Assembly (NCBI GenBank): GCA_964291265.2
Contig: OZ219747.1
Coordinates: 416,001-480,000 of the forward strand
Length of the DNA stretch: 64,000 nucleotides
Reading direction: 5' to 3'
DNA from: Alphaproteobacteria bacterium
GTDB lineage: Bacteria > Pseudomonadota > Alphaproteobacteria > SP197
Shown: positions 10,640 through 23,282 of the stretch, in pieces
Layout: each line of letters begins with the position of its first letter
How positions within the stretch are numbered: the first letter of the stretch is position 1
Program-made: the position numbers and the translations under genes
The notes under the pieces: generated by a model
Database searches by the model: none
What the model saw: the letters and a program-made list of their open reading frames with translations, nothing else
Told to the model about the DNA's origin: nothing

Positions 10640-11432
10640 AGCTGTCAGGACCGAGCGCCGCGGAAAGGTTCTCGAAGTCACCCTCGACCGGCCACCTGTC
10701 AATGCCATCGATGACAGAACATCGATGGAGCTCTACCAGGCCTTCCGAACGCTGCAGGACGACGACGAGCTCATGGTCGGCATCGTCACCGGTGCGGGTG
10801 AGCGCTGCTTTTCCGCCGGATGGGACCTCAAGGCCGTGGCCGCCGCCGACCGGCTCGACGAGGTCGACGGCGAGGGATCGCCTGGCGGGTTTGCCGGACT
10901 GACGGAGTTCTGGGATCTCCACAAGCCGGTCATCGGCGCCGTCAACGGCGTGGCCATCGGCGGCGGTTTCGAACTCGCCCTGTCGACCGACATCATGCTA
11001 GCCGCCGATCATGTCGAGTTCTGGCTGCCCGAGATGCAGCGCGGATTCCTGGCGAGCGCCGGCGCCATCCAGCGCCTGCCCCGGCGCATTCCCTACAACG
11101 TCGCCATGGACCTCTTCCTGACCGGACGCCACATGGATGCCGAGGAGGCACGGCACTGGGGTCTTGTGAGCGAGGTCGTGCCGGGCGCCGACCTGATGAC
11201 GCGGGCCCGCGAACTGGCGGATCAACTCAGCAAGTCGGCGCCCCTAGCGCTCCAGGGCCTCAAGGCGATCATGCCGGTCATCATGCCGCTTTCCCTCGAG
11301 AACGCCATGCGGAAGACGAAGACCGGCCATTCCGGTGTCGACGTCTACGAGAGGATGATGCACTCCGAGGACGCCATCGAGGGACCACGCGCCTTCGCCG
11401 AGAAACGCCGGCCCGAATGGAAGGGGCGCTGA
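10632..11432 (+). CDS. Enoyl-CoA hydratase/crotonase (CaiD-like)
   Basis: FSAGWDLK, KPVIGAVNGVAIGGGFELAL, LPE, EGPRAFAEKR.PEWKGR. Confidence 0.92.
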   Translation: MSEAVRTERRGKVLEVTLDRPPVNAIDDRTSMELYQAFRTLQDDDELMVGIVTGAGERCFSAGWDLKAVAAADRLDEVDGEGSPGGFAGLTEFWDLHKPVIGAVNGVAIGGGFELALSTDIMLAADHVEFWLPEMQRGFLASAGAIQRLPRRIPYNVAMDLFLTGRHMDAEEARHWGLVSEVVPGADLMTRARELADQLSKSAPLALQGLKAIMPVIMPLSLENAMRKTKTGHSGVDVYERMMHSEDAIEGPRAFAEKRRPEWKGR

Positions 11433-11482
11433 TCCGGCCTTGTTGAGAGGTTCGGACCTGGAGTAAGGTCGCGCACCCCCAT

Positions 11483-11571
<89 letters not shown>

Positions 11572-11591
11572 CCGGTTCTTGCCAGTCTCGT

Positions 11592-11699
11592 TTCCGCAAA
11601 CACCGCAAGCGCATGCGATACCGCCACCTCAGCGACCGCGGCGTCGCCATCGGCTCGGGCGTCGTCGAGGCCGCCAACAAAGTACTCATCACACAGAGG
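11592..11699 (+). pseudogene. Fragment of an ISKra4/ISLre2-like transposase
   Basis: FRKHRKRMRY...VAIGSGVVEAANKVLITQR aligns with the C-terminal part of the 462-aa transposases at 35073 and 38599. Confidence 0.85.
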
Positions 11700-11886
11700 A
11701 GACCCACTATGTTCAGAACCAGAACCGCCAGCATCATCTGACCGTCGCTCCAGCCCTGCGACGGGCTCCCGGACAGGCGCGGAAGCCCCGAAAGAACCCG
11801 CCTCGCCGCCAGCAAAGCAACTCGAACACCAGAACCAGACCGCCACGCGCTGTCGAAACTGCCCCACCAGGACGCTCAAATCATTC

Positions 11887-13106
11887 TAGTGTCATGTCAA
11901 CAATGATATGTCGTATATTTTGCGCTAGACTGTCCGTCCATTCGGGACGGAGGTCGGAGTATGAAACGCTACGTTGTGACCTTGGACGAGGCGGAACGGG
12001 AAGAACTTTCGGAGATCACGACCAAGGGCTCGCACCTGTCGCAAAAGGTGATCAACGCTCTGATCCTGCTCAACTGCGACGAGGGCGCGTTCAATGAACG
12101 CCAGGTGACCGGGGAGGTCATTGCCGGGATTCTGCGCATCAGCATGCGCAAGGTAGACCGGGTGAAGAAGCGTTTCGTGGAAGAGGGTCTGGAGGCGGCA
12201 TTGGGTGGCCGGCAGGGACGTCGTCCCAGCTCCGTGCGAAAAGCCGACGGCGCCTTCGAGGCGCGCTTGGTGGCCCTGAGTTGTGGCGAACCGCCCGAGG
12301 GTCACGCGCAATGGTCGTTGCGGCTGCTGGCCGACCGCGTTGTCGAGCTTGGCTACATCGATGCTGTGTCACACGAGACAGTGCGGCGTGTTCTAAAAAA
12401 AACTGCCTCAAGCCATGGCAGCGGGTCGGGTGGGTGATTCCTCCTCAAGGGAACGCCGACTTCGCCGCGGCGATGGAGAAGGTGCTCGATGTCTATCGCC
12501 GCCCCTATGATGCCGCCTTCCCCGTGGTCTGCATGGACGAAACGCCCCGACAACTGATCGGCGAGACACGGCAACCGATCGCCATGGCGCCAGGGCGGTC
12601 AGCGCGTGACGACGACGAGTATCGACGTTGCGGCACCTGCAACGTCTTCATGGCCACGGAACCCCTGGCCGGCAAGCGCATGACCAAGGTGACCAAGCGC
12701 AAGACCAAGATCGACTGGGCGCAGTTTCTGGCCGACATCGCCTCGCGCTACCAGGACGCCACCACCATCACCCTGGTGATGGACAACCTCAACACCCATC
12801 GGCCCGGCGCCCTCTACGAGGCCTACCCGCCGGACGAGGCCAAGGCCTTGTGGGACCGCTTCGAGTTCGTCTACACACCCAAGCACGGCAGTTGGCTGAA
12901 CGTGGCCGAGGTGGAACTCAACGTCATGATCCGCCAGTGCCTCAACCGCCGCATCGACTGCATCGAGGTGCTACGCCGGGAAGTCGCCGCCTGGCAGGCC
13001 TCCCGCGACCGCATCCAGGCCAAGGTGGATTGGCAGTTCACCACCGACGATGCCCGCGTGAAACTCAAACGGCTCTATCCGACATTTGACGAATGACAGG
13101 ACACTA
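11887..13106 (+). mobile_element. IS630 family insertion sequence
   Basis: Imperfect IRs TAGTGTCATGTCA / TAGTGTCCTGTCA, with CTAG at both junctions (11886-11889, 13104-13107). Confidence 0.9.
11961..13096 (+). CDS. IS630 transposase, two ORFs joined by a probable -1 frameshift
   Basis: HTH ORF 11961-12437 and DDE ORF (CMDE, VMDNLNTH, YTPKHGSWLNVAE) in the -1 frame; A8 run at 12395-12402. Confidence 0.88.
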
Positions 13107-13188
13107 GGAGTCGATGACACAGCCATCCTAGATTCCTTGAATGAAGGCAATGGTGCACAGATGAGCCAAGTTTTCATCACGGACATAT

Positions 13189-14783
13189 TCAGGCGGCAAG
13201 GGTCTGTCCCTCCCAGAGTTTGCTGACCTCGTCATCGAGCGAGTGGAGGATGCGTCCGAGCCTGGATGGCACCTTGTCATCGAAGGCCGCCGCCAGGGCA
13301 GGGCTGAGTGTCCGCCGGTGGATGCGGCAATAGGCAAGAGCGATCCTCTGCCCTCTTGCGTCAGACGATAGCGATGGGATGACGGTATCCTCTCGATGAG
13401 GCCCCGCAGGCGCAGGCGCCGCAGATCATAGGTGGCCTGACGTGAGCCATAGGTATCGGTCGACAGGAGGTCGGCAACGGCCTCTCTCATCTGGCGGTTG
13501 TTGAAGCCCATGGGGAGGAAGACATGCAGCAGGATGGCTGCGAGGACTGCCTGGATGCGTGGATCACCGAAGCGCAGGGCGGATACCCGACGTTCGTCGA
13601 CGACGACAGGTTGATGCAGGGCATCGAAGGTGGCTGCTCCGATCGGACAGTCGTGACTGATGCGTTGGACGTCGAGAAGACGTCGGGTGGCGTCGAAGCC
13701 GACCTCCTTGAGGTCATCGAGGTTGATCAGTCTGCGCTTGATGCCGAAGTCGTACGTGTTGTTGATCACCGTCTCCGTTCGCAGGGCACGGCCTTCCTTG
13801 AAGGACTGCTTGATACGCGAATGCCTGTCATCCACATGCAGCGACGGCTGCACGCCGTCGGTGATGACGCGGGTTCTGAACCGCGAGGTGGTCCGCCGTG
13901 TGATACGGCGGTTGAAGATCAACTGCACATGGTCAGGACGGCCGATGTCGAGGTTCTCGCGAATGATCTCCTCGAACAGGATCCGGCCGTGAAGAGGACG
14001 GTCAAACACCTGTGTGAGCGCACACTCCGCCTGGAGAATCGACAGGTCGTAGCGGATGCCCCTCATCGCGTCCTCGTCGGTGAAGGGATGGGGAAGCCAT
14101 GCCGTCCACTTGCGGAACAGCGCGTCGATCCGTGAGGCATCGATCTCCCCGGCCACGGCCTGCATGATCCGAGGATCGGCACAACTCAGGATGCCGTTGT
14201 CGAGAGCCTCGAAGGCCACCCCGCGCTTGCTCAGCTGACGCTTCAGGTATTCGTGACCATTGAGGCACAGCTTGGCGTTGTACGGGAAGTAGGAACAGAA
14301 CTTGATGAAGCAGGGACCAAAGTCGTCGTCCACGATGTAGATGTACCAGGCATTGACCATCGCCGTGCTGTGAACCAATTCGCAGGACGCCCTGCCCGTC
14401 GCCGGATCAACGCGCTTCTGCGTACGCAGGACACGGGCCTTCTCCTGGGCCTTGCCGACGTAAAGGACACCTTCACCGCCAGACCACAGGCGAAGATACT
14501 TCTGTGTCACATCATCCTTGCGCTCCCCCTTCCTGAAGCTGACAAGGTCGACACCCTGATCCCGGGCAAACCGCTCCAGGCGCGTCACAAAGCGCCGCGT
14601 CATCGGCGCCATCAGAGCCGATGACGGAACAGGATTGCCCCGAACCTCCCGAAAGAACCAGGCCGCGCCACCACCCGTCTGCAGCATTGGCACATAGGCG
14701 TTGAGATAAAGCCGGTCCAGACACTCAAGCTCCAGCGTCACGTGATTCTCAAGGACCTCGCCAACAGACCGTGCTATCGTCAT
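13189..14783 (-). pseudogene. Uncharacterised ~530-aa putative mobile-element protein with C-terminal winged HTH; 1-nt frameshift near 13350
   Basis: Long ORF from ATG 14783; motif RIKQSFKEGRALRTETVIN; wHTH YDLRRLRLRGLIERIP..HRYRLT; the alternative frame gives a natural-looking end RIALAYCRIH...QTLAA-stop at 13189. Confidence 0.65.
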
Positions 14784-15055
14784 CTTCTGGCCTCCGAACG
14801 ATGGGTTCCCCACATGGTTATCATAACCAACCCTCGGGCTGTATCAGGCGGGTCACCGCAGAGCGGAACAGCGGGCGGAGTCCTTTCCCTTCCGCGACGT
14901 CTCTCGTCGGTCTGAGGCATAGCCTCATTAGGAAAGGCATCGGACAACATGACACCCCTGCCGCAGCTCGCCGATCAGGGAGACCGCAACGCGCTTGACG
15001 GCGCGGGGCGGATTGTGTCATAATTGTAGCGTTCATCCCGAATGGAGACCGTGGC

Positions 15056-16027
15056 ATGGCCAGATTCAGAGGAACCGACGGCGACGACTGGCTCTACGGC
15101 AACTTGCTCTTCGGCGGCGCTGGCAACGACTGGCTCTTTGGCGGCGACGGCGACGACAAGCTTCGGGGCGGTGCTGGCAACGACATGATCTACGGCTTAA
15201 ACGGCAACGACAGGCTCCACGGCGGCGACGGCCACGACAGGCTCCACGGCGGCGACGGCGACGACGGGCTCCACGGCGGCGCTGGCCTCGACAGGCTCCA
15301 CGGCGACGCTGGCCACGACAGGCTCTACGGCCACGCTGGCGACGACTGGCTGGAAGGCGGAGCCGGCAACGACATGCTCTACGGCGGAGCCGGCAACGAC
15401 TGGCTCTTTGGCGGCGACGGCGACGACAAGCTTCGGGGCGGTGCTGGCAACGACAGGCTCGACGGCTTAAACGGCAACGACAGGCTCTCTGGCGGCGCTG
15501 GCAACGACTGCCTCTCTGGTGGCGCTGGCAACGACATACTCTACGGCGGAGCCGACAACGACTGCCTCTTTGGCGGCAACGGCGACGACAGGCTCTACGG
15601 CGGCGCTGGCGACGACAGCCTCTACGGCGACGGCGGCAACGACTGGCTCTCTGGCCGCGACGGTGGCGACACGCTCCGGGGCGACGCTGGCGACGACACG
15701 CTCCGGGGTGGCACTGGCGACGACACGCTCTATGGCGACGCTGGCGACGACACGCTCTACGGCGGGAAGGGCGACGACACGCTCCGGGGCGGCGCGGGCA
15801 ACGACCGCTTTTTCTTCGATGCCGAAAGCGACCATGACACCATTGCCGACTTCGGGAACGGCAGCGATACCATCGTGTTCAAACAGAAGTTGGCCTACGC
15901 CGACATCATCATCAAGGACCGCGACGCCGGGACCGTGATTACCGGGCCTAATGATGACTGGAGCATCACGCTTGAAGGCGTGACAGCGGCCGAGCTTACC
16001 GAAAGCGACTTTGAGTTTCTGGGATAG
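15056..16027 (+). CDS. RTX (hemolysin-type) calcium-binding repeat protein
   Basis: About 26 GGxGxDxLx nonapeptides, then D.I.DF..G.D.I and a type I secretion-like tail ending DFEFLG. Confidence 0.92.
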   Translation: MARFRGTDGDDWLYGNLLFGGAGNDWLFGGDGDDKLRGGAGNDMIYGLNGNDRLHGGDGHDRLHGGDGDDGLHGGAGLDRLHGDAGHDRLYGHAGDDWLEGGAGNDMLYGGAGNDWLFGGDGDDKLRGGAGNDRLDGLNGNDRLSGGAGNDCLSGGAGNDILYGGADNDCLFGGNGDDRLYGGAGDDSLYGDGGNDWLSGRDGGDTLRGDAGDDTLRGGTGDDTLYGDAGDDTLYGGKGDDTLRGGAGNDRFFFDAESDHDTIADFGNGSDTIVFKQKLAYADIIIKDRDAGTVITGPNDDWSITLEGVTAAELTESDFEFLG

Positions 16028-16556
16028 CTCGCGGCGTAGTCCTCGATGCGCTAGCGCATCATCGTCCCACCCCGCGAGCACCCCAGACACGCGGGGCGCG
16101 GGGCCGTCGCCGGGGTGCGGCGCACGAGCAAGCTCCCACGCCGACCCCGCCGAGACCCTATCGCGCCTAGGGCGTATGATCACGAATCATGGCGTTCCAT
16201 CGGGTACACAGCACCACATGTGGTGGGTACCATGGCTGGGGCTGGGGTCGCCCGAGCGAAATATAGGCATCGCGACGTCTTAAGGAACAAACTCTGAGGC
16301 AGCCGGTTTCACGCTGCGCACGTTCCGCGCCAACCGGAGAGCGCGGGCCTTCCATGAAGCGCACGGCCTCGTCGCGGTCGAATTCGGTCGCAGTGAAGCG
16401 GGAAACGAGCCCGACGTCGCCGGTCGCCGGGATCCGGCCTCCCTGACCTGATCGCGTTGTGCGCTGTCGCTGACGGAACAGCTGTTCCGGACTGTTGAGC
16501 GTGCTGCAGCCGTCTCACCTTGTCACGTGGCGACTGGCGGGTTCTTCCGGGGGCGA

Positions 16557-17408
16557 TCAGGGAGCGTCGATGAGCGTCACGTCGACGGACCGGCTGGGGT
16601 TCACGACTTCCTCGCGGCCGGGCACGAGGGCGAGTTCCTCGGTGCCGCAGGCGGCCGTCCTTCTCATGATGCCATGCGTGGCGGCGAGGGCATGGGCCAG
16701 GGCGGCGGGAAGCGCGGCACCCCGCAGGGTCACCGCGGTGAAGACCGCGGCGATGAGGTCGCCGGCGCCATCGACCGGGACGTCGAGGCGTTCGACGCTG
16801 GCCTGGCAGGCGCACTGACTGTCAACGGCGATGACGGGAATCGTGTCAGGATACCCGGCGCGCGCCTCGAGCGAGGTGACGACCACGGTCTGTGGCCCCA
16901 GGCCCTGCACCTGCCGAGCGGCGTGGAGTGCGTCATCGATGCCCTCGACCCGCCGCCCGGCGAGGAACTCGAGCTCCATGTGATTGGGGAAGAGAATGTC
17001 GGCCCTCGGCACGATGTGATCCCTGAGGTACTCGGGCACGCCGGGTTCCACAAAGAAACCGTCCTCGTTGCCCATCACCGGATCGCATGCATAGAGGGCG
17101 CCGGGATTGGCCCGGCGCAGCACGTCGAGAGCATGGAGCACGGTGTCGCCGAGTTCCGGCGAACCGATGAATCCCGTCAGCAGGGCCCGGCACCGGCCGA
17201 GACCGCGTCGCGCGACGCCGTCGATCAGCTGCGTCACCCAGGCGGGTTCGAGAGCCCGTCCCTCGTAATCCTGCCAGCCCAGGTGATTGGAAAACACAAC
17301 CGTCGGCACGGCATCGACCTCGAAACCGAGAAGCTGCAGGGGCAGCACTGCCGCATTGAGACCGACATGGCCCCGCGCGACATGGGACTGGATCGTCAGG
17401 ATATCCAT
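16557..17408 (-). CDS. pdxY: Pyridoxal kinase
   Basis: ILTIQSHVARGHVG, PTVVFSNH, CDPVMG, PN..ELEFL, GAGDL. Confidence 0.9.
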   Translation of the reverse strand: MDILTIQSHVARGHVGLNAAVLPLQLLGFEVDAVPTVVFSNHLGWQDYEGRALEPAWVTQLIDGVARRGLGRCRALLTGFIGSPELGDTVLHALDVLRRANPGALYACDPVMGNEDGFFVEPGVPEYLRDHIVPRADILFPNHMELEFLAGRRVEGIDDALHAARQVQGLGPQTVVVTSLEARAGYPDTIPVIAVDSQCACQASVERLDVPVDGAGDLIAAVFTAVTLRGAALPAALAHALAATHGIMRRTAACGTEELALVPGREEVVNPSRSVDVTLIDAP

Positions 17409-18276: not shown

Positions 18277-20651
18277 CTTTCAACCAGACACTGTTGAATC
18301 CATCTTTTTCAGCATATCGAGTTCCTGCAGTTTCCGCATATTTCGGTGATGTTCGACGAAGGTGAGGAGGATTTCGTATCCCTGCCAGAGTTTCTCAGTC
18401 CCCGGCAGGGGTTGACGTTTTCTGGGAATGAAGCCCGCCAGGCGTGCGACGTCGACGGCGAAGGCTGCGATGGTCGGTTCGGGATCGGGAGGTCCACGCG
18501 GCGTGCGCTGTCGGCTGACCTTATAGATGTTCAGGACCGTGATCTCGTCGCGGTGGACGATGTGGCTTGCCGGGGTGTCTGGTGCCGAGCGTGCGAGGCG
18601 CTCGACGGTCATGACGCGGCATGCGGTGATGGCGTCGAAGGCCAGACACTTCCTCAGATCGTCGGCCTGGTTGAGGCGCCGGTCCTTGATCCGGGTGCCG
18701 ACCTTCAGGGCCTTGAAGTACTCTTCGATCCACCATCGCCTCTCGTAGAAGGAGACGGTCTTGAGGGCATCGTCTGCGGTGACGTCGCCTTCGGTGGTGA
18801 GCAGCATCCAGTCGAGAGGATCGCGGCCTGGCGGTGGGGCGGGTTCCGTGACCCGCACGGCCATCATGGAGAGCGGCGGCGTTGCCTGAGGCTTCTTGTC
18901 CGGCGGAGCCAGGTCGACCCTTGCCGCACGGACTTCGAGGCGTACGCCCTTGCGCTCCTTGCGACGACGCGGCCCTCCGCAGGCTGCGATGTCGATCTGC
19001 TTCGTTGCGATGCACGGCTCGTCCGCCATGTAGTCCCAAAGGTCCCGGCAGGCGCCCGTTGCGGTGACCACGCGGCGCCGTGTCGAGCGCCTGACGCGCA
19101 CCAGCAGACCGGCCTCGTGCTCCGTGCTCCGGGCCAGCAGGTCCCAGATGTCGCCTTCACGGTCACAGATCACCAACACCCTTGTCGAAGGACAGGCAGC
19201 GGCCAGTTCCACGGCCTTGTCGTACCCGTCGAGCCAGCGCCGGCTCTCCTTGTCGTCTGGCTCGTCCTTCTTCTGATCCGGCTTGAGACGGAAGTCGGCG
19301 TCGAGATGGAACAGGCCGAGGGATGAGCCGCCTTCGCTGAAGGCAACCCCGGCATGGGCCGCCATGCCAAGGGCGCCCGAGCCGCCGCCGCCGATGTCAA
19401 CAAGACCCTTGGTCGCCTCCAAGCCGTTGTCATTCAAGAACGTCGTGTCCTGGATGGCAAGAATCAGGCGCTGCGAACGGCAGCGTTCCACCATCGCTTC
19501 CTGGTGCCCCTCAAGGATATGCTCCATCGTCACCCTCGGATTCGACAACAAGCGGTAGGCCGCCTTCTGCTCCGCCTCGCCGGGGAAGATCACCGGCAGG
19601 ATCGCGCCGGGACGATCGTTCCACGCCCGGCCCATGGTGACAAGGCGCTCGCGGATGCGCACGTCACTGTGGCTGCTGCGGGCGTACTCCCTCATCGCCC
19701 AGTCGGTCCTGTCATCACCGACAAGGGGCGCCGCCTGGCCCATGACACGCTCAGGCTCCCGGCACAGCACGGCGCGCCAGTCAGGCGTCAGGGGCTTCAT
19801 CCATACGGACCGCTGCACGCCCGGGCCGGTGGCCCCGGGAGGTCGACCCGAGGTCATCTCCTCACAGCGCTCCCAGCCCGCCGCCCGGTAGCTCACGCCG
19901 CTGTGCTCGGGACCCACATACGTGTACGCCAGAACCGGCTTCACCCCGTACTTCTCGTGCCAGTCCGTAGCCAGACGCCGGCAGGCACAGGCCAGGGCAT
20001 GGGAGGCCAACTCCTTCACATCCACCGATGGAAGAATCAGGAAGCGATCATTGTTGACGATCTCGCCGAGGTGGGCGACACGGGCTCCCTGGGACCAGCC
20101 GATGAAGTCGTCGCGCGCCTTCTGGTGCCAACTCGCCGCACCAAACACCAGGCCGCCGAGGCGACCGTGGCGCGACGAGGTGATCCAGTAGCTCACCCGG
20201 GCTCCGGGTGCGCACGCCTCGCCTTCGGGATGCCAGGTCGCCATCATCGAACGGGCCAGGCGCTTGTCCTCGCCCTCGCCCACAGGCTCCAAGGTGACCT
20301 CTCCAAGGTCCTCCAGAGAACAGGCGAGGAGCTTGTCGGGATAGTCCCGCTCAAGGATGTCGGCGCCGGTGCCGAAGGCATCAGGCCTTGGTGCAGGAAG
20401 GGCGATGTCGAGCGACGCAGCAAGGTCAGGCAGGGCCGCACGCGCCGAGGCAAGACAGAGCTCGCCCTTCGCGTTGCGCCACTCCTCGCGCTCGCACAAT
20501 CCCCGCGCCAGAGACGAGCGTGTGCTGCCCTCGGCAGCCGACGCCGCCTTCAGCCAGTCAACCGTCGTCGCAGACAGATGTCGAAAGCCGATCCTCATGG
20601 GCCACTATGTAAGGCCTCATGAACGTCGAGTCAAGCCTGTCCCGTTGAAAG
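18277..20651 (-). mobile_element. IS4 family element A
   Basis: IRs CTTTCAACCAGACACTGTTGA / CTTTCAACGGGACAGGCTTGA; 9-bp TSD GACACACAC (18268-18276, 20652-20660). Confidence 0.92.
18280..20598 (-). CDS. IS4 (IS50-like) transposase with N-terminal DUF4338-like domain
   Basis: N-half RDDFIGWS, NNDRFLILP, LASH.L, Y...GVSYRAAGW; C-half AAYRLL, IQDTT, CDREGD, Y..RW.IEEYFKALK, LAGF...PG...LW.G. Confidence 0.9.
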   Translation of the reverse strand: MRIGFRHLSATTVDWLKAASAAEGSTRSSLARGLCEREEWRNAKGELCLASARAALPDLAASLDIALPAPRPDAFGTGADILERDYPDKLLACSLEDLGEVTLEPVGEGEDKRLARSMMATWHPEGEACAPGARVSYWITSSRHGRLGGLVFGAASWHQKARDDFIGWSQGARVAHLGEIVNNDRFLILPSVDVKELASHALACACRRLATDWHEKYGVKPVLAYTYVGPEHSGVSYRAAGWERCEEMTSGRPPGATGPGVQRSVWMKPLTPDWRAVLCREPERVMGQAAPLVGDDRTDWAMREYARSSHSDVRIRERLVTMGRAWNDRPGAILPVIFPGEAEQKAAYRLLSNPRVTMEHILEGHQEAMVERCRSQRLILAIQDTTFLNDNGLEATKGLVDIGGGGSGALGMAAHAGVAFSEGGSSLGLFHLDADFRLKPDQKKDEPDDKESRRWLDGYDKAVELAAACPSTRVLVICDREGDIWDLLARSTEHEAGLLVRVRRSTRRRVVTATGACRDLWDYMADEPCIATKQIDIAACGGPRRRKERKGVRLEVRAARVDLAPPDKKPQATPPLSMMAVRVTEPAPPPGRDPLDWMLLTTEGDVTADDALKTVSFYERRWWIEEYFKALKVGTRIKDRRLNQADDLRKCLAFDAITACRVMTVERLARSAPDTPASHIVHRDEITVLNIYKVSRQRTPRGPPDPEPTIAAFAVDVARLAGFIPRKRQPLPGTEKLWQGYEILLTFVEHHRNMRKLQELDMLKKMDSTVSG

Positions 20652-20924: not shown

Positions 20925-23282
20925 TCATAAATCGTGCAGGGCGCGGTCATGTCCTTCCGACGTCGGATCCAGATCGAGGGCCTCGAGCAGGCATTCATAG
21001 GCCAGGGCAGCGGTGGCCAGTCGCGGATAGCCATGCCACATCGTCTGGTTGCCCGGCGCCGGATCATGCTTGCGGTCCAGATACCCGCCGAGGATCGCCA
21101 CCAGCTTCACCGCCGCCCCCAGCGTGTCGGGCGGGTCCAGCCGGTATCGCCGGGCATAGTCGCCGAGGAAGCGGAGTTCCAGGTCCGAGAACAGGCAGTC
21201 GGGCTTCATCGTCGGCACATCCCGCCCGAGCAGGGTCATCAGGGCAAGACGCCAGGCGATCACGGCGTGGATGGTGATCTGCCGTTCCAGGCGGCAGGCC
21301 TTGCGCGTCGCCAGGTGCTCCACCCGGCAGCCGGACTTCAGCACCCGGAACCAGCATTCGATCCGCCAGCGCAGCGCGTACCAGCCGACGATCTCCTGGG
21401 CCGCTTCGGCGTGGTCCACAGGAAGGTCGGTCAACAGGAACCATTCCACCGGAGCTTCCCCGGCCGGCGGGGCCGTCTCGAGGAGATGCAGCGCGGTCAC
21501 GGCCACGGGCGCGGCATCGGGGCAGCCAGCGGTCGCCGGCAGCGTGGTCGACAACCAGCGCAACTCCAGCACCGCGTTCCGCCGGGCAGTGCGGCCGGGC
21601 TGCTTCTTGCGCCCCGAGGACTTCGGCCGGGCCGTCAGGCGGGGTATGTCGATCTGCATGGTGCCGCGGCAGGCAGACGTACGTAGTCGGGTGAACAGCT
21701 TCGCAGCCCCGCGCTTGAGGACCCGGTCATGTCGAGCCCGCACCAGCATCGACAGACGGCGATGCTGCCGGCACCGGTCGAACAGTTCGAAGAAGTCCGC
21801 TTCCCGGTCCATCACGCACACGACCTTCACCCCGGTCGTCCGGGCCGCGAGGTCCGCGATGTCGTCGAGACCGTCGAGCCAGCGCTGCGACTTGCGCCGG
21901 GACATCTCGACATCCTCGCCCGAACCGGTCTTTGCCCGGGGGCGGGGAGGAGCGTCGAAGGCAAGACGCGCCACCCCCAGCGGCAGGCCTTCGCCGCTGA
22001 CAACGTAGCTGGCGTGCAGGTGCAGGCCCAGGGTCTGCGAGGCCGTCTGGTTCGTGCCGATGATGCCCAGACCGTCGCAGCCCGGACGGGTCGCGAAGTT
22101 CAGGTCCGTCCCGTCCTGAATGCACAACGCCACCCGCTGGCCGCACATCCGCTGCACCGTTCGTTGACGGTGCGGCGCCAGGATGTTCGCCGGGGTCACC
22201 GCCGACGTCTCCGGCTGATCCAGGAACCGATAATAGGCCCGGACACCGGCAGGATCCGGGCGCGCCAGACCGCTGTAGGACGACATCGGACTCTCTCCCT
22301 GTCTTCGTGCAATCTCCACCAGGCGCGCACTCAGACGCCGGTCGCCGATCGGCGCTCCCCCGAACTCGTGGTGCGCCCACGCCGAGGCGTCCAGACCCTC
22401 CCCCGGGGACAGGGCCGGCATCGGCTCCGCCACCCCCAGCTTGTGCCGCCAGTCCCGGTCCAGAACGTACATGTACACGGCCTTGACGCTCTCGGCCATC
22501 TCGCGCGCGCGGTCCTGACGGCCTCGGCCCCGGGTGAACCCCACGAGCTGCCAGTTCGCCGCCCGCAGGCTCGCACCGTCGCGCGTCGGGTCGACATAGG
22601 TCTCGACCAGCCATGGCAGGAACCCGTAGCGCTGCGCAACATCGGCGCCCAGGCGAGACAGGCACATCGACAGCGTCTTCGACGCAAGGTTCGCAACCGG
22701 CACCCGGATCAGAAACCGGCTCATCGACAGCACCCGGTGTCGCTCCGCACGACGCCGGTCGGCATCCCAGCCGATCCAGGCATCCCGATCCGCCACCTTC
22801 AGCGCCGCTGCGGCAAAGCCGAAACCGCCGAGACAGCCGTGAGCGGAATCCACCAGATAGCGCAGCTGATGACCGGCCAGAATGGGAGCGCCGAGAAAGT
22901 GCTCCCGCGCCATCAGTTCGTTCCAGAGCGCCCGTTCGGCATCCGTGCGCACCAGCAGGATCCGCAGACCCTGGATCGCCGCCACGCTCGCCGGCACATC
23001 ACGCGGCTTCTCCACCGCCTCGCCGAGCCGGCGGGGCGTTGCCCGACGCCGCTGACCGGAGGGCTCCGGCAAGCCCTCGATCCTGCCCTGCGATGCCAGC
23101 TGCTTCAGGGCCACGACACAGCTCGATACCCGCTCGCGTCCCCGTGCGTCCCGCAGGCCGAAGTGCCGGCACACTTCCAGCGCCAGGCGGTTTTGACTAC
23201 TATCGCCGCTCTCGGTGACGATCGACTGCAGGCGATCGAGCTGGTCCTCGAGGACGCGTTTGATCGGAATGTGTGCTTCCAT
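20925..23282 (-). CDS. IS4 (IS50-like) transposase with N-terminal DUF4338-like domain
   Basis: RDAWIGWD, SRFLI, NLAS, ETYVD...GASLRAANW...G.TRGRGR; IQDGTDL, MDREAD, Y.LRWRIE..FRVLK. Confidence 0.9.
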   Translation of the reverse strand: MEAHIPIKRVLEDQLDRLQSIVTESGDSSQNRLALEVCRHFGLRDARGRERVSSCVVALKQLASQGRIEGLPEPSGQRRRATPRRLGEAVEKPRDVPASVAAIQGLRILLVRTDAERALWNELMAREHFLGAPILAGHQLRYLVDSAHGCLGGFGFAAAALKVADRDAWIGWDADRRRAERHRVLSMSRFLIRVPVANLASKTLSMCLSRLGADVAQRYGFLPWLVETYVDPTRDGASLRAANWQLVGFTRGRGRQDRAREMAESVKAVYMYVLDRDWRHKLGVAEPMPALSPGEGLDASAWAHHEFGGAPIGDRRLSARLVEIARRQGESPMSSYSGLARPDPAGVRAYYRFLDQPETSAVTPANILAPHRQRTVQRMCGQRVALCIQDGTDLNFATRPGCDGLGIIGTNQTASQTLGLHLHASYVVSGEGLPLGVARLAFDAPPRPRAKTGSGEDVEMSRRKSQRWLDGLDDIADLAARTTGVKVVCVMDREADFFELFDRCRQHRRLSMLVRARHDRVLKRGAAKLFTRLRTSACRGTMQIDIPRLTARPKSSGRKKQPGRTARRNAVLELRWLSTTLPATAGCPDAAPVAVTALHLLETAPPAGEAPVEWFLLTDLPVDHAEAAQEIVGWYALRWRIECWFRVLKSGCRVEHLATRKACRLERQITIHAVIAWRLALMTLLGRDVPTMKPDCLFSDLELRFLGDYARRYRLDPPDTLGAAVKLVAILGGYLDRKHDPAPGNQTMWHGYPRLATAALAYECLLEALDLDPTSEGHDRALHDL

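Follow-up and report, generated by a model that had tools for sequence, protein, structure and literature searches.

A decayed member of an unannotated insertion sequence family with a putative Rep_trans-like tyrosine transposase

Described rolling-circle systems and the element in comparison

In those parts of PMC5714925 that were consulted, rolling-circle transposases are HUH enzymes and Rep_trans family members act only in replication and conjugation; a tyrosine on a beta strand together with an acidic triad marks Rep_trans as opposed to HUH proteins (sections of PMC5714925 and PMC6499999). IS91 generates no target site duplication, has a target tetranucleotide beside oriIS and a related tetranucleotide with a palindrome at terIS, and forms a functional bottom-strand circle (sections of PMC13181058 and PMC3189936). 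Here, we describe an element found in a stretch of 64,000 nt from an Alphaproteobacteria bacterium (SP197; assembly GCA_964291265.2, contig OZ219747.1, positions 416,001-480,000, forward strand). This whole stretch is referred to as the window and its genome as G000; other G-numbers denote genomes, L-numbers element loci and X1-X5 sequencing runs whose contigs were searched. The element is almost certainly a mobile insertion sequence (IS), and the window copy, with a body of 1800 bp at 13132-14931 (minus strand) and without terminal inverted repeats, is a decayed member of a large, unannotated, multi-copy 1.8-kb IS family. The encoded protein is very probably the tyrosine transposase of the element.

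The element resembles the IS91 family (IS91, IS801 and IS1294; HUH Y2) in the absence of a target site duplication and of terminal inverted repeats and in the occurrence of miniature derivatives. Further similarities are a target tetranucleotide beside the right end and, at the left end, a related tetranucleotide accompanied by a subterminal palindrome, all as given in the sections of the IS91 literature that were consulted. Unlike the HUH enzyme of IS91, in which the tyrosine is located on a helix, the enzyme described here is predicted to be similar to TATA-binding protein (TBP) and to carry its tyrosine on a beta strand (residues 322-329). The target is moreover the palindrome CTAG. With the Rep_trans family (PF02486; RepC/RepD of pT181/pC221, RepSTK1, inovirus Reps and MOB_T) the protein shares the crescent-shaped TBP-like fold, which is predicted here, acidic residues (motifs N', I and IV) and a Tyr-x-Lys (motif III) in the same order, and an RxE motif (parts of PMC6499999 and PMC5714925). 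It differs from this family in its longer core (~360 aa), in a QxE in place of RxD, in its C-terminal winged helix and in lacking a PF02486 profile match; its gene resides on a chromosomal multi-copy IS and not on a replicon or an integrative and conjugative element, and the proposed cut lies outside the CT'AA register.

Rep-Arvir/RepSNJ2 proteins (DUF7845, PF25227) also combine a TBP-like catalytic domain at the N-terminus with a MarR-like winged helix behind it and have a hairpin as cis-element, and the spacing of their residues E25/D207/Y283/E303 is much like that of D23/E253/Y327/E337 in the element protein (parts of PMC13107129). They are replication initiators of archaeal viruses and plasmids, whereas the element family was found in bacterial records and did not match PF25227. 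Elements of the IS200/IS605 group (HUH Y1) do not duplicate their target, are cut 3' of a tetranucleotide and carry a subterminal hairpin. The element shares the missing duplication and the hairpin with them and, as proposed below, the cut 3' of a tetranucleotide, but it encodes a 531-aa non-HUH enzyme, has its target at the downstream end of the gene and was not accompanied by a TnpB-like second gene. IS630 likewise inserts in CTAG, and one copy adjoins the window element, but IS630 elements encode a DDE enzyme, are bounded by terminal inverted repeats and duplicate TA, while the element showed no DDE match and no inverted repeats. The DEDD RuvC-like recombinase of IS110/IS1111 was not matched by the element protein in Pfam and NCBIfam.

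Distribution, ends and target of the family

A homolog search returned at least 8000 relatives (all 8000 scored candidates), and a profile search yielded 15,133 representatives after clustering at 50%, of which many are fragments. A genome scan confirmed 587 of 608 stretches, of which 80 were kept, and the record titles name Proteobacteria, Acidobacteria, Actinomycetes, Planctomycetes, Chloroflexi, Gemmatimonadota, Verrucomicrobia and a spirochaete. Occurrence was patchy, with members in 10 of 201 genomes of the phylum and, within the genus, in 11 of 22 further genomes. G201 harbors 17 near-full copies that fall into two sets of near-identical sequence with unrelated flanks, and the complete copies examined in other genomes numbered 11 (G203), 8 (G202), 6 (G208) and 5 (G212). 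The members are single-gene 1.8-kb chromosomal repeats, and identical multi-copy elements retain an intact open reading frame (ORF). The family was further present on 27 large-plasmid records, with plasmids of Burkholderia and Rhodococcus as cultured carriers, and its gene was annotated as hypothetical in the two regions that were read; no member was detected in viral and phage collections. The earlier note on this DNA had proposed a mobile element on the basis of the letters alone, and the finding that homologs are multi-copy with unrelated flanks, instead of single-copy genes in conserved synteny, speaks for this proposal.

When the window region was compared with its own genome by BLAST, 18 pieces were obtained that correspond to four other large broken copies (94-98% identical) and several end fragments. 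These copies end at the same two points as the window copy and have different flanks. The earlier note had placed the element at 13128-14931 with a TAG shared by both junctions (13129-13131 and 14929-14931). Both triplets are present and the matches to other genomic copies stop at these points, but 13128-13131 is most likely the target, and the element is therefore given as 13132-14931. In 11000-17000 there were 34 inverted pairs, and the 25 longest of them, which were listed, included no terminal inverted repeat, in line with the note.

In a survey of 55 full copies from eight genomes both ends were resolved in 52. The right junction read CTAG in all 52, whereas the left end read CTAG in 28 and CTAA in 24, fixed per genome with the exception of one copy. 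In gene orientation the left end consists of CTA(A/G), one base, the hairpin GAGGC-NNN-GCCTC and then AGACCGACG, and the right end of TGaCTCA, a variable spacer and then CAAGGANT. The same layout was seen across ~100 loci; the stem of the left hairpin is kept across phyla, while its 3-nt loop varies, and the sequence does fold into a hairpin. In the window copy, the hairpin and the conserved motif that follows it occupy 14905-14927 (stem-loop 14913-14927, minus strand), and the type-fixed left tetranucleotide CTAA (TTAG on the plus strand) lies at 14928-14931. It is an element-borne near-copy of the target and a putative termination site. The right end at 13132-13173 (minus strand), which is kept in full and miniature elements alike, may be the origin end by its likeness to oriIS, and the CTAG adjoining it downstream of the gene is located at 13128-13131.

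A clean empty site was found at L135, which is 99.6% identical on both sides to the filled site L094 and contains a single CTAG. Two older paralogous sites read TTAG and CTGG and are likewise 4 nt apart. The ends mapped to the positions proposed in the note. An empty version of the exact window locus was not found in 40 relatives or in JGI metagenomes. Left and right flanks of 99 elements were searched separately, and 94 pairs had no duplication of 3 bp or more. The remaining five showed duplications of 3-6 bp (among them three of 6 bp and one of 4 bp) that leave the left tetranucleotide whole and may predate the insertion. A regular 3-bp or TA duplication was rejected, as most pairs lack it and the distant subfamily described below has no TA duplication. 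An extended palindromic target was also rejected as a rule. The note had pointed out a palindrome formed by the joined flanks of the window copy, which indeed read TCCTAGGA; in tallies of 158 left and 119 right junctions of the elements inserted at CTAG (the CTAG group), the bases at -1 and +1 were mixed and only the CTAG core was general. CTAG itself is depleted in G000 (849 seen versus 3619 expected; 0.23).

Since both junctions share CTA, the position of the cut is hidden in the CTAG group. A distant subfamily of 80 metagenomic loci, ~24% identical to the CTAG group, forms ~1.89-kb units with conserved, non-inverted ends. Its left triplet was TTA in 38 of 44 unique left ends, whereas the right triplet (n=60) was TTA in 24, ATA in 21, CTA in 3, GTA in 2 and another sequence in 10 cases, some of the latter being pattern mis-calls; the difference between left and right was significant (p 9e-5). 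In four elements with 100% identical bodies, the left end is TTAG throughout and the right triplet is GTA, GTC, TTA or ATA, and L307 combines a left TTA with a right GTC. Because the left triplet is fixed and the right one varies, the left tetranucleotide is carried by the element and the right one is the target, without duplication. Assembly of metagenomes can swap flanks across repeats, which weakens counts of left/right pairs but not the difference between left and right ends. The duplications in the CTAG group, which leave the left tetranucleotide whole, agree with this register. By analogy, the window element (13132-14931) would have inserted beside the target at 13128-13131. Four distant-subfamily loci (L298, L314, L315 and L316) have at least 30 nt of left flank in common, while the right flanks of L314 and L315 differ; this is either left-flank capture or the result of assembly swaps.

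These data bear on two alternatives to the mode of transposition proposed below. Conservative double-strand recombination across the short CTA core via a double-stranded circle, as carried out by IS110 or tyrosine-recombinase elements, would account for the core that the two junctions have in common and for its single occurrence in the empty site. It could also accommodate one G000 copy with CTG at both ends and one G202 copy (L090) that is distinguished from its siblings by two bases only, namely position 4 and the final base, which both border the junction cores. We regard it as quite improbable, as the protein matches no recombinase family in Pfam or NCBIfam and the core bases show no co-variation between left and right in the distant subfamily, in which the first bases agree in 20 of 46 elements, approximately the chance level that the margins predict (hand-worked expectation). 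The second alternative is a rolling circle in the register of Rep_trans, with a gene-strand nick CT'AA at the left end and termination at CT'AG at the right end. Rep_trans and MOB_T proteins nick at CT'AA (parts of PMC9371924), CTAA forms the left end at 78 of 158 junctions, and the joined ends of the window copy would read TCTAAT, like the origin of pT181. Among identical bodies of the distant subfamily, however, the base preceding the right TA varies, and in one case the TA does too, which points to a cut outside the tetranucleotide. The three 6-bp and the one 4-bp duplication keep the left tetranucleotide whole, and CTAA or CTAG stands beside the left hairpin and not in its loop. An early reading with such a gene-strand nick was demoted because of the right-end variation in the distant subfamily, and we consider this register unlikely.

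Gene-less miniatures of 93-164 nt with both ends were detected at 29 of 54 short-match loci scanned (in G210, G211 and G209). Therefore, the ends alone appear sufficient in cis, and the miniatures are likely mobilised in trans. At six loci (L019, L043, L101, L207, L225 and L255) elements adjoin the end of a miniature or of a related element in head-to-tail order, since a CTAG target is available at each end. A second, inverted left-end hairpin motif was present a short way inside the element at L059, L072, L084, L209 and L247. In G000, a ~195-nt repeat with ~17 copies of 94-98% identity (C2:1514128-1514326) is probably another miniature element.

The target bias was one-sided. An A was found at -4 in 89 of 158 left flanks, compared to 29 of 119 right flanks with a T at +4, and the A-rich bias at -4/-5 recurred in the distant subfamily (29 of 44 at -4). 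An extra CTAG within 12 nt outside the element was more frequent at left ends (20 of 158) than at right ends (3 of 119; p 0.002), a pattern compatible with read-through on the left side. Among 107 elements, insertions with a common right flank amounted to a single 9-nt pair. The same 9-12-nt spacer with an extra CTAG precedes the left end at L023 and L024 in G209 and at L213 in G211, three unrelated sites, and this spacer is possibly a captured left flank.

The predicted enzyme and the mode of transposition

The earlier note had compared part of the protein with the catalytic region of Rep_trans initiators. A first structure model built from 31 close sequences was poor (residues 274-330 unfolded, only MarR-type fold matches) and was replaced by a model of residues 1-382 of an intact homolog from G214, built from 142 diverse rows. 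This model had a predicted local distance difference test score (pLDDT) of 94.9, a predicted template modelling score (pTM) of 0.90 and a TBP-like core. In Foldseek searches against the PDB the first three ranks were taken by RepSTK1 (4CIJ; E 1.2e-3 to 4e-3). A VIA search of 48,161 chains gave TBP with Z 9.1 (root-mean-square deviation 3.7, 177 residues aligned), followed by RepDE (4CWC; Z 7.0, deviation 5.0, 183 aligned) and RepSTK1 (4CIJ; Z 7.0, 5.3, 187 aligned), while unrelated folds reached at most 6.8, and a further search gave a concordant result. In the viral library BFVD, TBP-fold proteins were matched together with A0A345MNV4 (E 2.2e-3), an inovirus Rep_trans protein that also tied RepSNJ2 to Rep_trans (parts of PMC13107129). 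The fold comparison therefore left the Rep_trans-like reading of the note standing. HUH and RuvC folds were absent from the listed matches, although this listing alone does not exclude them.

A fold by itself shows no function, but conserved residues add weight. In an alignment of 116 rows with identities down to ~21% (column totals between 91 and 116), near-invariant positions were D23 (91/91), E253 (114/116), Y327 (111/115), K329 (108/116), R335 (115/115) and E337 (110/115), so that conservation of the tyrosine, which the note had put up for checking, was borne out. D23, E253, Y327 and E337 are located on modelled strands 15-30, 246-260, 322-329 and 333-340, respectively, and their order matches D46/D142/Y191/E214 of RepDE. 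The acidic triad and the Tyr-x-Lys are retained across ~24% identity, and the distant subfamily reads FDRV and IKQYNK where one pT181-type Rep protein reads FDAM and IRIYNK. No HUH pair was present among the near-invariant columns. The winged helix at ~430-498 gave MarR-type structure matches with a probability of 0.8-0.96 and, in a separate search, a match with E 0.0047 at 430-498. Judging from the model and the conservation, D23, E253 and E337 may bind metal, Y327 would cut one strand and hold its 5' end, and the winged helix would bind the element ends.

Sequence searches in Pfam, NCBIfam, PHROGs and the PDB returned nothing for the core and only weak matches for the winged helix, and the ESM Atlas contained only unnamed clusters. 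Scans of homologs in Pfam and NCBIfam gave no recombinase, DDE, IS91, HUH Y1 or IS110 (DEDD RuvC-like) match. No profile match to PF02486 was obtained, nor one to PF25227 among the 31 + 33 members scanned; PF02486 was not found in G000 or 20 relatives, and a single sub-threshold match occurred among 151 genomes of the class. The protein would thus work like the Rep_trans and Rep-Arvir families but is not a member of either by profile.

It might instead be argued that the protein is a non-catalytic DNA binder or passenger and that the unit is moved by a host or DDE transposase, for example that of IS630, whose target is likewise CTAG. By Z, no structural match exceeds TBP, and an IS630 copy lies next door to the window element, but the acidic triad and the Tyr-x-Lys are kept across ~24% identity, inverted repeats are missing, 94 of 99 flank pairs lack a duplication of at least 3 bp, and identical multi-copy elements retain an intact ORF. 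This explanation is therefore highly improbable.

For the mode of transposition, we lean, with modest confidence, towards IS91-style rolling-circle transposition by a Rep_trans/TBP-fold tyrosine enzyme instead of an HUH enzyme, with the following strand and replicative mode. At the right end, the enzyme would nick the strand opposite the gene (the plus strand of the window) 3' of CTAG, the nicked plus strand would be displaced by host replication, a second nick 3' of the hairpin-TTAG at the left end would close a single-stranded circle, and this circle would be joined 3' of a new CTAG. This order of nicks is suggested by the element starting 3' of CTAG and ending in hairpin-TTAG on the plus strand.

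The same enzyme could act by peel-and-paste as in IS200/IS605 elements, with single-strand excision, resealing of the donor and pasting of the circle 3' of CTAG without priming of replication. IS608 is cut 3' of a tetranucleotide and of a hairpin-linked tetranucleotide. The end logic of the element, with cuts 3' of the target tetranucleotide and 3' of the hairpin-linked one, fits this mode equally well, and the 0/6 one-ended fragments bounded by a tetranucleotide are also in its favor. By contrast, the known Rep_trans-fold enzymes all start rolling-circle synthesis in the parts of PMC5714925 and PMC13107129 that were consulted, in the CTAG group a conserved hairpin is present at the left end alone, and the left-biased extra CTAG suggests read-through. 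Peel-and-paste is in our view fairly unlikely.

Several observations weigh against IS91-style rolling-circle transposition by a Rep_trans-fold enzyme. Regarding the enzyme, no Foldseek match in the PDB had an E-value below 1e-3, TBP ranks above the Rep proteins by Z, and a Z below 8 may, according to a warning of the tool, reflect a common arrangement only. A comparison by hhalign with a Rep_trans alignment of two sequences gave a probability of 0.2%, the profile being shallow, and the RxD of Rep_trans motif I reads QxE. Regarding the cut, its register rests mainly on the distant subfamily with its metagenomic contigs prone to flank swaps, the uniform CTAG at 52/52 right junctions of the CTAG group leaves it unfixed, and the CT'AA nick of Rep_trans is in a different register. 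Regarding the products, no circle or back-joint was detected in contigs of the five runs, which drop rare forms, and of six 5'-truncated fragments none starts at a CTAG-like tetranucleotide, so that one-ended transposition was not seen. The extra upstream CTAG is also explicable by target preference (A at -4 in 89 of 158), and a 24-nt piece in the window abuts the right end and not the end at which read-through of the IS91 type puts captured DNA.

The window copy and its neighbourhood

The putative transposase gene of the window copy extends on the minus strand over 13189-14783, with the ATG at 14783 and the family-frame stop at 13189-13191. It comprises 531 codons in the family frame, in agreement with the ~530-aa gene of the earlier note, and encodes the predicted TBP-like catalytic core (~residues 15-375) and the C-terminal MarR-like winged helix. 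The gene is broken; read through its frameshift it spans 14813-13128 (561 aa), and the window protein had no Pfam or NCBIfam match. The lesions were located with an alignment of 30 homologs (A1). At codon 327 (13803-13805), the position of the putative catalytic nucleophile, the window copy has a serine where all 30 homologs have a tyrosine, and it further carries Y319D and four more changes at conserved sites. Beyond the winged helix, at codon ~478 and near 13353 (13350-13354), a change of frame in tblastn revealed a one-base frameshift. Contigs of the population are 1 base longer here, the frame-keeping extra base being present in runs X1, X2, X3 and X5, and the Tyr codon was found in contigs of X1, X3 and X5. 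The serine and the frameshifted C-terminus had both been recorded in the note, together with the conclusion that the copy is probably inactive, and with both lesions in place we regard the copy as dead. Lacking an active enzyme, it could move only in trans.

None of the copies in G000 is intact; another IS interrupts one of them, a second contains an internal duplication, a third has a deletion and a fourth is a fragment. The Tyr-to-Ser allele is common to four dispersed copies on C2, which are 94-98% alike (at 429128, the window copy, and at 1370845, 4153615 and 2972187). The copy at 3307942 retains the tyrosine, and the remaining lesions are mosaic among copies. This pattern suggests a dead parent that spread in trans, or gene conversion.

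The element lies downstream of a tRNA gene (11483-11568, just upstream of an IS cluster), between the IS630 copy (~11886-13105) and an RTX-repeat gene. IS630 (11886-13105) has a two-frame transposase, is inserted in CTAG and is present in G000 as one more large and several partial copies. The RTX-repeat gene at 15056-16027 encodes a 323-aa protein that consists almost wholly of calcium-binding nonapeptide repeats. Two minus-strand ORFs farther on (18280-20598, 772 aa, and 20925-23282, 785 aa) resemble, as judged by eye from their motifs, IS4/Tn5-type transposases with an extra N-terminal domain.

The 24-nt piece (CTAG plus 20 nt) that abuts the right end occupies 13104-13127. One contig in X2 and three in X3 join sequence matching 11863-11884 directly to 14929, which suggests an ancestral site without IS630, the element and this piece. 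Its 20 nt recur, with up to two mismatches, at a single further place in the genome that borders a dispersed repeat, compared with 1 such match in 12 shuffles. The piece may be a flank that the element brought along from an earlier site, as judged from short, loose contig ends.

The open full-text literature, searched exclusive of subscription journals, supplements and ISfinder/TnCentral, contained no description of the element or of a Rep_trans-fold transposase, and the consulted part of bioRxiv 10.64898/2026.10.21.760802 held nothing relevant to the element. We consider it probable that the Rep_trans/TBP-fold superfamily has independently yielded a large bacterial transposon class of IS91/Helitron design, meaning a tetranucleotide target, a hairpin terminator, flank read-through and miniature hitch-hikers, with unrelated chemistry. 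Its subfamilies target CTAG and NTA, and it would represent a new transposase class that annotation has missed. The window copy is a real but dead member of a large unannotated IS class, whose transposase chemistry is probably new. If true, a Rep_trans-fold transposase would add to the known chemistries of transposition and would be an instance of convergent evolution towards the rolling-circle mode. As the family is large, spread over many phyla and annotated as hypothetical, IS catalogues likely miss it. The ends fit in ~93 nt, and natural miniatures and cultured carriers exist, so that the mechanism lends itself to direct tests, and a compact, scar-free integrase for CTAG that consists of a single protein could serve as a tool.

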